Positions 11,865 to 14,801 of a stretch of 17,798 nucleotides of DNA are shown here, piece after piece. Numbering within the stretch: position 1 is the stretch's first letter; the number at the start of each line of letters is the position of its first letter. A model generated the notes under the pieces. That model saw only the letters and a program-made list of their open reading frames with translations. It ran no database searches and had not been told where the DNA came from. The stretch covers positions 1 through 17,798 of the forward strand of contig JAGOPO010000016.1 of the NCBI GenBank assembly GCA_017992005.1, written 5' to 3'. The position numbers and the translations under genes were made by a program. The stretch is from Minisyncoccota bacterium. Lineage in GTDB: Bacteria > Patescibacteriota > Minisyncoccia > 2-02-FULL-40-12 > GWA2-44-9.

Positions 11865-11988
11865 GGACGTGATACGAGTGCATTGACGAGTGTTAAAAAT
11901 AATGTTAAACAACTCCAGCAAATCTGCGGGTATACCGAAGGTTTGAGTCGTCCTTTTACAATAAATAGAACAACATGAGGAAAAGTCT

Positions 11989-14715
11989 ATGCCACCAGAA
12001 GATACTAATCGCCAGCGCGATTTCGTGCTAGCACCCAATGAGTTCATGTTCGTACAGGATCGCGCAAATGGTCAACTGAAAGTACAGGTTGGCCCAACTA
12101 CTGGCACGCTGCAGGCAGGCATCGAACCTACTATCTTCGACTCGAAGGCGGGTCGATTTGTTATGGTCAGGCTTGTTACTGATGCTGTGCAAATGTTCCC
12201 GGCCGCAAACGAGGGCGCATACGTCATTCTCGAGAACCCTTCGACAGACACCAATCACGCCCATCCGGATGCGGCAAACGTCAACAACTTCACGACGAAG
12301 CTGGACATGGGGCGCAAGATCAACATCCCCGGACCGCAGACATTCTCGTTGTGGCCGGGCCAAATCGCAACGGTCGTTCCCGGACACCAGCTCCGTACCA
12401 ATGAGTACCTCGTGGTCAGGGTCTACAACGAGGAAGCGGCGCGAGCAAATTGGGAGAGTGCAATCATGAAGTCTGCGGGTGCTATCACACCGCAGGAAAC
12501 TGGCGAGTCGGATGAAAAGGTGCAGGCTGACCCCGAAGTGAAGGCTGCCGTCGCCGACGTGTCTGTTGAGCCGCCCGAGCTCACGATGGGCAAGCTCATC
12601 GTGATCCGGGGCAATGAAGTATCGTTCTATATCCCGCCCACCGGACTTGAGGTGGTGAAGGATGAAAACGGAAGCTACATCCGAGAGGCGCTGACGCTGG
12701 AACGACTGGAGCACTGCATTCTCTTGTCCGAAAACGGCGACAAGCGGTATGAGCGCGGTCCTCAGGTTGTCTTTCCGGGTCCCACTGAAACGTTTGTGAG
12801 CGCGACGGGCGGAAGTCGAAAGTTCCGCGCAATCGAGCTCAACGACGACATGGGGCTCTTCATCAAGGTTACCGCAGACTACAAGGAAGAAGATGGTACG
12901 CTGCGCAGGGTTGGCGATGAGTTGTTCGTGACAGGCAAGCAGCAGCGACTCTACTTCCCCCGCGCGGAGCACAAGCTCATCCGCTACGGTGACAAGGAAA
13001 TCCACTTCGGAGTCGCGATTCCGAAGGGAGAGGCGCGCTACGTTCTCAACAAGCTGACGGGCTCCGTCGAGCTCGTGAAGGGACCGCGCATCTTCTTGCC
13101 TGACCCGCGCACACAGGTCATCGCTCGTCGAAGTCTCTCCGAGGAGCAGGTTCGTCTTCTGTATCCTGGCAACGAGGCTGCACTCGCTCACAACGCACAA
13201 CTGCGGAGCATTCAACAGAGCCGTGGTGTTGGCGCAGATCAACCGTTGGACGATTACAGTGTTCGCGCTTCTCTGGGACGCGTTCAAGCCCGGGGAACTC
13301 GCCAAGTCGTTGGTGAGGACTCGGTTGAGGCATTCGGAGGAAGTAGCATCGATCGCGGCTCCGCCTTTACTCCGCCACGTACCATTACGCTCGATACGAA
13401 ATTCGATGGTGCGGTTGCAATCAACATCTGGAACGGCTATGCCGTCATGATCGCCGATAAGGCGGGCAATCAGCGCGTCGAGGTTGGGCCGAAGACCGTA
13501 CTCCTGGAATACGACGAGTACCCGGTGGTGCTGACACTGAGCACTGGCAAGCCGAAGAACACGAACAGTCTGGTCAAGACAGCGTATCTGCGGGTGAAGT
13601 ACAATCATGTCACTGACGTGGTGGACGTCACCACGGACGACGACGTTCGAGCATCGGTCACGCTCGTGTGGCGCGTGAACTTCGAGGGTGAGCCGGATAA
13701 ATGGTTTGCCGTCGAGAACTACGTGAAGTTCCTCTGCGATCGAACACGTTCGATCCTGAGAGGCGTAGTGAAGCAGATGTCCATTCAGCGTCTCAACGCG
13801 GATTACATTCCCATCATTCGCAATGCGGTCCTGGGTGAAAAGCCCGACAATGGCCCACGTAGTGGATTGCGCTTTGCCGAGAACGGTGTGCGCATTTACG
13901 ACGTGGAGGTTTCCGAGTTGGTAATCGGTGATCAGGCGATTGCCGCGATGCTTGCACAGGTTCAGACTGAATCTGTGAAGCGAGCGATCAATCTCAGTAA
14001 GCAGCGGCGTGAGTACGATGACACGCTGGCATCGGAAGATCTCAAGCGAAAGACCGCTGAGGCACTTGCCAAAACTAGTGCGCACGCTGCCTCGCTCGAG
14101 ACGTTGAGGCTCGAGGTGCTGGAAGATAACCGTCGTAAGGCGGCAGATGCGACAGCGGAGACGAGGAGTCACCTCGCGACGTTGGCCATTGACGATATCA
14201 AGCGAGCTGAAGCGGCGGAACGGGCGCGTTCGTCCGAGGCCGAAGTTTCAGCCATACAGGCGGCACAACTGGAAGCTGATCGCATCACGCGTGATGCGGG
14301 TCTCGAGGAGGCGCGTTCGACTCTGGAGAAGAATCGACACGAGTATCGAGCCGCAATCGCTCGACTCACCGAGGCACTTGAAAGCGAGAGGGCAGAATCT
14401 CGCCTCGAGCGCCAGGACGCGGAACAGCAGCAAGCAGTGTCGCATGAACAGCGAATGCTCGAATTGCGACTCAAGGAGCTCGAAGCACAGACAGGAGCAG
14501 CCGTGGAGCGCTTCAAGAGCTTCACGCCGGAGCTCACCGCCGCACTCCAGGCGTTTGGTACTCGTGACATCGCGACGGCACTTGCCACCGCGGTCGCCCC
14601 GATTGCCGTTCGCGAGGGTCTGAGCGTGAGCGATGCCCTTGTCCGTATCTTCAAGGGGACGTCTTTGGAGAAGGTGCTCGCGGGCGTCGCCGCCCGAGTC
14701 GAGCAGGCGTCGTAG
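11989..14715 (+). CDS. Major vault protein (MVP) homolog, full length (908 aa): N-terminal MVP repeat domains, shoulder (SPFH-like) domain and coiled-coil cap-helix region
   Basis: Several colinear segments align by eye to human MVP. [28 protein letters not shown] aligns to [43 protein letters not shown] aligns to [44 protein letters not shown] aligns to [29 protein letters not shown]. The shoulder region [14 protein letters not shown]...[16 protein letters not shown] aligns to ARLQLQLAYNWHFE...FPQNGLVVSSVDVQSV. An Ala/Glu/Arg-rich coiled coil follows. A GAGGA Shine-Dalgarno motif lies 7 nt upstream of the ATG, and an intrinsic terminator follows the stop. Confidence 0.85.
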   Translation: [908 protein letters not shown]

Positions 14716-14727
14716 TCGTACGTCGTG

Positions 14728-14763
14728 GAGCCTGTCATGCGCGTGCATGGCAGGCTCTTTTTT
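14728..14763 (+). terminator. Rho-independent terminator of the MVP-homolog gene
   Basis: GAGCCTGTCATGC-gcgt-GCATGGCAGGCTC followed by TTTTTT. A 13-bp stem sits 12 nt after the stop. Confidence 0.7.
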
Positions 14764-14772
14764 CACCACGTA

Positions 14773-14801
14773 TTGACGCTAAGTCATCCCGATATTATAG
14801 T
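14773..14801 (+). promoter_or_regulatory. Near-consensus sigma70-type promoter (TTGACG, 17 nt spacer, TATAGT) driving the downstream mini-gene
   Basis: TTGACG at 14773-14778 and TATAGT at 14796-14801, exactly 17 nt apart. A GAGAGG Shine-Dalgarno motif and the ATG at 14820 follow. Confidence 0.5.

Follow-up and report, generated by a model that had tools for sequence, protein, structure and literature searches.

A vault-protein homologue with a family-wide third-position GC excess in a strain-variable cassette between ribosomal-protein operons of a Patescibacteria bacterium

Results and Discussion

The locus and its cassette

The 17,798-nt stretch of contig JAGOPO010000016.1 analysed here (the window) carries, between ribosomal-protein operons, a gene whose 908-amino-acid (aa) product is a major vault protein (MVP) homologue. 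In an rpsB-based scan with one genome per species the host was placed in the Patescibacteria (CPR, for Candidate Phyla Radiation; Parcubacteria/Paceibacteria-like), the closest records being labelled Ca. Saccharibacteria, Paceibacterota and Yanofskybacteria. The first open reading frame (ORF) is followed by genes for a class II fructose-bisphosphate aldolase, a 1,978-aa fn3/PKD surface protein (the giant gene) and dockerin- and cohesin-domain proteins, then by L25, a 169-aa ORF, prfB (-), rpmE (-), the MVP-homologue gene (+) and a 37-aa ORF, and at the right end by rpsB, a tsf of short length, a TPR-protein gene, three tRNAs and a GIY-YIG gene. The original prediction held that the MVP-homologue gene stands apart from its ribosomal neighbours in composition, pointing to its acquisition from a GC-richer donor, the eukaryote-like identity of its product being taken as a further clue. 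The features of the gene and its borders are the following.

11889..14771 (+), MVP-homologue cassette of 2,883 bp, present in the window and in locus L001 and absent from locus L010 (blastn of window against L010, junction alignment)
11882..11888 (+), left copy of the 7-bp direct repeat ATTGACG, holding the -35 box TTGACG of the putative MVP promoter (junction sequences)
11883..11911 (+), putative MVP promoter, TTGACG and TAAACA separated by 17 nt with an extended -10 TG among them (read from the sequence)
11977..11981 (+), Shine-Dalgarno sequence GAGGA, 7 nt upstream of the ATG (sequence)
11989..14715 (+), coding sequence (CDS) of the MVP homologue, 908 aa (Pfam, AlphaFold model, Foldseek, dN/dS, the ratio of nonsynonymous to synonymous divergence)
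12028..14172 (-), 714-codon antisense ORF, a non-coding by-product of the avoidance of TTA, CTA and TCA (ORF listing, codon counts, simulations)
14727..14768 (+), strong intrinsic terminator closing the MVP unit, with a 14-bp stem and a T-run (terminator scan)
14772..14778 (+), right-hand ATTGACG of the direct repeat, serving as -35 box for the promoter downstream (junction sequences)
14773..14801 (+), promoter-like site TTGACG-17-TATAGT with 10/12 matches, preceding the small ORF and rpsB-tsf (promoter scan)

The segment 11889-14771 would form a self-contained transcription unit, set where the promoters of rpmE-prfB and of the small-ORF/rpsB-tsf operon diverge. It holds the MVP ORF only, with no integrase or transposase and no adjacent tRNA (the nearest lies at 17019). 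The layout of the putative MVP promoter is repeated in two syntenic loci, L004 (TTGACT-17-TAATAA) and L005 (TTGACC-17-TAGATA), each with TGn before the -10 box; a consensus promoter scan did not call the site, the -10 box of which is without the final T, and its assignment comes from layout conservation in three orthologues only. Judged from their sequence, both repeat-associated sites probably function as promoters. A similar hairpin with T-run follows the MVP stop codon in L001, L004 and L005. The 5' leader of the gene (11912-11976; also L004:2440-2500 and L005:1720-1785) has a partly conserved motif, CCGAA..GGTT..GTCGTYYTTTNCAA, in three syntenic orthologues and may be a regulatory hairpin.

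Codon usage and the antisense frame

The MVP gene (11989-14715) has a GC content of 0.579 against 0.509 in the rest of the window and a GC content at third codon positions (GC3) of 0.659 against 0.431-0.593 across the 12 other window ORFs. The claimed compositional distinctness therefore holds, with GC3 outside the distribution of the other window genes, and the GC contents that had been estimated by hand were about right for the MVP gene and for rpsB (0.507, estimated at about 50%) and wrong for the first ORF (0.476, not about 38%). The 714-codon antisense ORF is likewise real and unique in the window, the next longest ones measuring 204 aa, within the cohesin gene, and 168 aa, within the giant gene, the latter as the original prediction stated. 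Its frame is exactly codon-aligned with the sense frame, where antisense stops arise only from sense TTA, CTA and TCA, and as these codons are nearly absent from the gene (used twice in 909 codons, compared with 26.8 per 1000 elsewhere among the window genes) the stops are gone. In 5000 simulations in which the MVP protein was back-translated with the codon usage of its neighbours we obtained about 18 antisense stops, a longest open run of 169 codons on average and 483 at most, and an expected GC3 of 0.499 +/- 0.016. When the gene's own usage was put in instead, 27% of the simulations reached a run of 714 codons or more, so that the antisense ORF needs nothing beyond codon usage. High GC3 and the antisense ORF are one phenomenon. 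We can confirm the compositional anomaly, which lies far outside what chance would give on the local background and which the codon usage of the gene explains in full.

Long antisense ORFs are an established side effect of codon usage. As in the known shadow ORFs of codon-biased or GC-rich genes, the codon-aligned antisense frame is stop-free from the rarity of TTA, CTA and TCA, but unlike in the usual cases the genome of the window has only about 51% GC, so that the frame marks a gene-specific and not a genome-wide bias.

The bias is also selective. In the window A-ending codons are depleted in the MVP gene for Leu, Ser, Val, Pro and Lys (p 0.0002-0.003), with a trend for Ile, and show no depletion for Ala, Gly, Arg, Gln, Glu and Thr. 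The gene avoids TTA, CTA, TCA, GTA, ATA, CCA and AAA and favours C in Ile and Asn, while GCA, GGA, CGA and GAA stay at the level of the neighbours. The amino-acid composition was considered as a cause of the excess and rejected: it raises GC at first codon positions (0.654 vs 0.551), lowers GC at second positions and cannot alter GC3. The tetranucleotide signature of the MVP segment, corrected for base composition, correlates with the rest of the window at r=0.744 (window range 0.50-0.78); this per-segment comparison, which had been suggested as a check on foreign origin, places the segment among the most host-like in the window.

Orthologues and a survey of the gene family

The synteny prfB-rpmE-MVP-rpsB-tsf was found in L001, L004 and L005, with MVP aa identities to the window of 94%, 72% and 61%. 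Synonymous sites are saturated against L004 and L005 (proportion of synonymous differences, pS, 0.67-0.69; synonymous divergence, dS, >1.6), and in both comparisons the nonsynonymous divergence (dN) of MVP is about 2-3 times that of rpsB or prfB, which argues that MVP has co-diverged with its flanks. Host GC amounts to 52% in L004 and 63% in L005 and the GC3 of MVP has followed it (0.623 and 0.916), in each case staying above that of the neighbours (L001 0.672 vs 0.42-0.56, L004 0.623 vs a mean of 0.54, L005 0.916 vs 0.70-0.83). Because a relic cannot outlast synonymous saturation, the GC3 offset must be actively maintained.

To the orthologues we added a survey that drew on 160 further loci from metagenomic and viral collections, its set comprising 121 non-redundant loci with at least 5 neighbours each and a flank GC of 21-75%. 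Over these 121 loci MVP GC3 is tightly correlated with the GC3 of the neighbours (r=0.97) and lies above the local mean in 103 of them (mean +0.069, Wilcoxon p=5e-17), including 23 out of 23 loci in the 50-60% GC class to which the window belongs. MVP ranks first in GC3 at 37 loci vs 10 expected. The longest other ORF, used as control, gave +0.030, a small positive artefact that tempers the value for MVP, and the offset of MVP rises with genome GC. In 40 independent mid-GC loci the A-ending share relative to the neighbours was 0.28 for Ile, 0.43 for Leu, 0.52 for Ser, 0.86 for Glu and 0.87 for Ala; every codon family tested there was depleted somewhat, including Arg (0.65) and Gln (0.67), with a ranking broadly as in the window. 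The GC3 excess is a trait of the MVP gene family in almost every carrier genome, built up afresh in each host background, and not of a donor. For genome scanning this is a trap, as elevated GC3 together with a long shadow ORF is on its own no evidence of foreign origin, and the comparison of orthologues across hosts of differing GC is what separates a gene-intrinsic codon bias from a donor relic.

Presence, absence and recombination

Between L010 and the window the flanks show 92-96% nucleotide identity, with rpsB at 100% on the aa level, and exactly 11889-14771 is missing from L010, which has a single ATTGACG at the junction; L004 has ATTGACTT on both sides of its MVP gene. MVP is present at the site in the window, L001, L004 and L005 and absent in L010, L012 and L013. 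In L012 and L013 rpmE lies directly beside the rpsB-side promoter with no MVP between, and in none of the outgroups (L014-L021) is MVP found at the rpmE-rpsB junction. A tree of rpsB, tsf and the TPR gene unites the window, L001, L010, L004, L012, L005 and L013 in a clade with a bootstrap of 1.0, in which lineages with and without MVP are interleaved, and in the MVP tree the window clade is monophyletic with the topology of the host tree. To judge from these comparisons the MVP gene is accessory and dispensable at the strain level. A horizontal gain has probably occurred at some point, and an ancient one, for which synteny and not composition speaks; from the proposal of horizontal acquisition the accessory insertion and a likely gain thus survive and the compositional argument for it does not.

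The cassette was probably gained once, at the base of this small clade, and has co-diverged with its host from then on. It would since have been lost at least three times, each time precisely, one gain followed by losses being the simplest history. Most likely the losses took place by deletion between the two -35 repeats, which would restore a working rpsB-side promoter; we infer this repeat-mediated mechanism from the junction sequences.

MVP alleles also appear to be exchanged between strains by homologous recombination. Compared with L001 the window is identical over 10446-12005 and 15019-15831 (0 mismatches over 1.56 kb and 0.8 kb), and a divergence of about 8% is confined to the segment 12006-15018 in between, which runs across the MVP CDS, its terminator and that of the small ORF. 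The CDS contains 246 differences, and its dS of 0.315 vs 0.00 in the flanks is about as large as that of the flanks between window and L010 (0.18-0.45). Since diverged alleles sit in identical surroundings, recombination would move the MVP segment; the sharp identity mosaic reflects either allelic replacement by homologous recombination or a strain-chimeric assembly. With dN/dS at 0.09 against L001 and 175 of the 246 differences at third positions, the gene is functional and under purifying selection, yet dispensable at the strain level, and this variability within the population is of some interest.

A second hypervariable locus is found at 2010-9067, with the giant gene and its dockerin/cohesin neighbours, where L010 has an unrelated 1.6-kb segment instead. 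Against L001 the giant gene is strongly diverged (83% aa identity, dS of 0.49), although genes close by are identical. Its tetranucleotide signature is the least host-like of the window, and its GC3 of 0.484 is among the lowest.

The cassette shares with classical genomic islands an atypical GC content, patchy presence among relatives and short flanking direct repeats. In contrast to such islands it has neither a mobility gene nor an adjacent tRNA, its tetranucleotide signature is host-like and it has co-diverged with the host over saturated synonymous distances. Amelioration as expected for an island is not seen, as the offset persists in L004 and L005 and across the survey, and instead of a border attachment site we find a 7-bp repeat that doubles as the -35 box of two promoters.

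The protein and its relatives

The MVP homologue is laid out as N-terminal beta repeats, a shoulder (SPFH-like) domain, a long cap-helix and C-terminal helices. Residues 538-646 match MVP_shoulder (PF11978) with E 3.4e-21 and 75.9 bits (cut-off 25) and residues 491-528 match Vault_3 with E 2.7e-10 and 40.7 bits (cut-off 28.8). In the AlphaFold model residues 11-565 are all-beta, in keeping with tandem MVP repeats, at a predicted local distance difference test score (pLDDT) of only 66, which is moderate; fragments of murine MVP R1-R7 were matched by Foldseek at E 4e-10, and the cap-helix corresponds to predicted helices at 649-740 and 754-843. The best Foldseek matches are vault MVPs (PDB 4V60, 4HL8, 7PKZ and 9BW5; E 3e-23 to 2e-17 over about 900-990 alignment columns), with SPFH proteins ranking after them. 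Nearly invariant M1, R8, R10 and D11 in an alignment of 47 sequences back the start codon at 11989. The protein may assemble into a cage of the 39-fold half-vault/78-mer type. Among the ORFs of the window no PARP, TROVE or WD40-NACHT gene was found, and Rfam yielded no vault RNA there. PADLOC-DB 2.0 gave no defence-system family for the cassette at E <= 0.001, and neither PHROGs nor Rfam had a match for it.

An exact-sequence look-up of the window protein returned no match and the contexts of homologues were used instead. The homologue search yielded more than 4,345 proteins, and thousands of bacterial and phage proteins align with the window protein along its entire length at 43-54% identity. 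Its nearest relatives outside the window clade (50-54% identity) are a phage-borne copy (L007) and copies from environmental bacteria (L006, L196-L198), followed at 43-46% by proteins from Myxococcales, Eremiobacterota, Riflebacteria, Nitrospirota, a Firmicutes metagenome-assembled genome, Thiotrichales, Parcubacteria SG8_24 and Magasanikbacteria. As identities reach 72% between phyla although MVP evolves 2-3 times faster than S2, the family must move horizontally. Rat MVP was matched by HMMER at E~1e-9 over residues 474-781 only (last repeat, shoulder and cap-helix) and shows 16% identity by Foldseek. Sequence comparison therefore sets the window protein deep in a large bacterial and phage family and far from eukaryotic MVP, a placement for which we used E-values, identities and published trees (10.1101/2023.11.10.566534). 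The eukaryote-like identity invoked in the original prediction is consequently no sign of a eukaryotic source, as the nearest relatives are bacterial or from phages and published work agrees.

Bacterial MVP homologues are known from in silico work on Myxococcales, Cytophagales/Bacteroidota and cyanobacteria (Daly et al. 2013, PMC3762200; Sokolskyi 2019, 10.1101/872010), at about 25% identity to eukaryotic MVPs (PMC3762200; 10.1101/872010). Like the window protein they have a beta-repeat N-terminal half, Vault_3, MVP_shoulder and a long cap-helix, and the proteins of Myxococcales, Eremiobacterota, Riflebacteria and Nitrospirota align with it over 98-100% of the length at the identities given above. 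The window protein is longer (908 aa vs about 820-850 aa in other bacterial homologues), and unlike theirs its gene lies between ribosomal-protein operons, with strain-variable presence and diverged alleles. No mention of MVP in Patescibacteria/CPR was found in the literature, while database entries exist (Parcubacteria SG8_24, Magasanikbacteria); as far as our searches show, the protein belongs to the known bacterial MVP family in a phylum where it is apparently undiscussed. A full-length vault-protein homologue is thereby placed in the ultrasmall, genome-streamlined Patescibacteria, beside core translation genes. Eukaryotic MVP (rat, human) remains the best structural match over the full length, with sequence likeness in the last repeat, shoulder and cap-helix and about 16% identity, and its partners vPARP, TEP1 and vault RNA were not identified in the window.

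Phage copies of MVP have been reported to be nested among bacterial ones, with two gut Caudoviricetes as examples (10.1101/2023.11.10.566534), and these two seem to be the only published ones. In IMG/VR we found 234 viral contigs, many of 100-480 kb, that encode full-length MVP homologues with 36-46% identity (L116-L195 are IMG/VR loci). In L007:2315-12616 and L127:1-12490 genes for a T4-like Gp23 major capsid protein and an S77 prohead protease are found no more than about 8 kb away from MVP. The phage homologue L007 (about 50% identity), on whose contig this Gp23 capsid and S77 protease occur, shares the GC3 excess with the window copy; unlike the phage copies, the window copy is chromosomal, between housekeeping genes and with no phage genes nearby.

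In L196:1346-13947 and L197:4620-16495 an MVP gene (about 49% identity to that of the window) lies inside an NAD biosynthesis/salvage cluster with NAPRTase, NadE, the NrtR regulator, NAD kinase, NadA, a NadD-like protein and a PncA-like isochorismatase. The cluster recalls PARP4, the TEP1 NADase and the ADP-ribose pocket of eukaryotic vaults (10.64898/2026.05.01.722283). Bacterial-type MVPs could be abundant cage or shell proteins, forming a strain-variable module common to bacteria and phages, and these contexts hint at an ancient role, older than eukaryotes, in virus-host conflict or in NAD-linked compartmentalisation; we offer this as speculation and consider it rather doubtful.

Origin and maintenance of the codon bias

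Taken jointly, we give a probability of roughly 0.7 to an ancient gain followed by recurrent loss and recombination, with the bias being upheld by selection acting on a shell protein that is probably abundant. The most economical cause of the bias appears to be that selection shapes the codon usage of a shell or cage protein made in large amounts. In the phage-like contig L007 MVP and the T4-like major capsid gene are biased in correlated directions (r=0.72, p=1e-10), and GC3 is 0.661 for MVP and 0.655 for the capsid gene against about 0.45 for bulk genes. Signals of the gene in the window and the orthologues comprise a TTGAC -35 box, an extended -10 TG within the 17-nt spacer, a Shine-Dalgarno sequence of good quality and a terminator with a 14-bp stem. 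Should the bias be a sign of high expression, a vault-like shell would be a heavy investment for these cells and for many phages, and such an investment would bear on the long-standing question of the purpose and origin of vaults.

Several points weigh against this reading. High expression is itself presumed from the sequence. Among the genes of the window, those for translation and glycolysis show a bias with just a weak correlation to that of MVP (r=0.28, p=0.035), and rpsB, tsf and L25 are all lower in GC3 than MVP. The effective number of codons (Nc) does not discriminate, the deficit of MVP relative to its GC3 (-8.1) being no larger than that of several neighbours, and the local compositional background consists of about 13 window genes only. 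The survey used heuristic ORF calls on loci that are not phylogenetically independent, the congruence of MVP and host genes rests on three MVP-carrying lineages and would arise by luck with a 1-in-3 chance, and since all compared sequences are metagenome assemblies some of the mosaicism could be chimeric.

The proposed recent acquisition from a GC-richer, possibly eukaryote-related donor, with a composition not yet ameliorated, could draw on a GC3 about 10 standard deviations above the neighbour-usage expectation, on the precise absence of the cassette from the about 95%-identical L010 with a 7-bp direct repeat at the borders, and on a family that is clearly mobile between phyla and carried by phages. 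It is very improbable in view of the same excess in syntenic orthologues after saturation, in hosts of other GC, and throughout the family (103/121 loci), of the host-like tetranucleotide signature, of nearest relatives that are bacterial or from phages with rat MVP matched so weakly, and of a cassette without integrase or transposase. A uniform GC shift was also rejected, whether from a donor or from GC-biased gene conversion, because either would move all codon families while GCA, GGA, CGA and GAA are unchanged, and the low GC3 of the giant gene contradicts it as well. Gene conversion is nevertheless the chief alternative for the bias: repeated conversion at a recombination hot spot would have raised GC3, in keeping with the about 8% divergence from L001 between identical flanks, the presence/absence polymorphism and the growth of the offset with genome GC. 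We consider it unlikely, as the giant surface-protein gene recombines at least as much (dS 0.49; replaced in L010) but with its GC3 of 0.484 is among the lowest, the shift is limited to certain codon families and the same bias is seen in a phage capsid gene.

Concerning presence and absence and not the cause of the bias, MVP might instead have been re-acquired recently from a sister Patescibacteria lineage of similar GC, by homologous recombination across the rpmE/prfB and rpsB flanks onto an L010-like empty site. This is compatible with selection on an anciently gained shell-protein gene and would account for the lineages with and without MVP being interleaved three times in one clade, as well as for window and L001 alleles that are as diverged as the window-L010 flanks in otherwise identical surroundings. 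One gain with three deletions is equally simple, the promoter-restoring 7-bp repeat offers an easy deletion route and the MVP topology matches that of the host, which leaves re-acquisition as a minority view that we nonetheless take seriously. That the antisense ORF is a genuine overlapping gene, the need to keep its frame open driving the avoidance of TTA, CTA and TCA, we hardly credit at all and have rejected. The three stop-creating codons are indeed among the most depleted (about tenfold), but GTA, ATA, CCA and AAA, irrelevant to antisense stops, are depleted equally, the ORF has no Pfam match, its frame is broken by 4 stops in the 94%-identical orthologue of L001 and by 7 in L004, and such an ORF arises in 27% of the own-usage simulations.

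Neighbouring genes

The genes and signals around the cassette are listed here.

48-1154, unknown ORF, first of the window (ORF listing and Pfam scans)
10726..11574 (-), prfB (release factor 2-like), left flank (Pfam scan)
11602..11826 (-), rpmE (ribosomal protein L31), left neighbour (Pfam Ribosomal_L31 on the L004 and L005 orthologues)
11864-11836 (-), promoter-like site beside rpmE (promoter scan)
14820..14933 (+), small hydrophobic ORF of 37 aa (MKEGNPVGSESPYSPWKEFVFILSILSCVALYVKCTG) between MVP and rpsB (sequence comparison)
15132..16316 (+), rpsB and tsf, right flank (Pfam scan)

The 37-aa ORF is hydrophobic in its C-terminal half and has its own promoter-like site before and a terminator after it; counterparts exist in L010, L012 and L004 (62 aa there) and none in L005 or L013. 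The release factor 2-like ORF (10726-11574, -) has 282 aa only, with its PCRF match beginning at profile position 100, and EF-Ts (15864-16316, +) only 150 aa. Both short lengths are kept in relatives, and the two proteins resemble translation factors that have been truncated, a trait that may be typical of this lineage of Patescibacteria.

Upstream of rpsB a conserved leader (15030-15131), ..AAAACTCAATGATTTGTTCGATAGTG.. followed by a GC-rich hairpin, is common to the clade and also found at L004:5650-5760, L005:4640-4770, L011:1-95, L012:330-400 and L013:340-455. It gave no Rfam match at the gathering threshold and may be a lineage-specific S2 autoregulatory leader. The tRNAs of the window lie at 17019-17526, Rfam yielding these three and nothing else. 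The GIY-YIG ORF as listed (17111-17449) overlaps tRNA-Tyr (17107-17191), and as its Pfam match begins at residue 35 the true start is probably near 17213. In L004 a FecR/CHASE2-cyclase pair is inserted between the tRNA block and the GIY-YIG gene.

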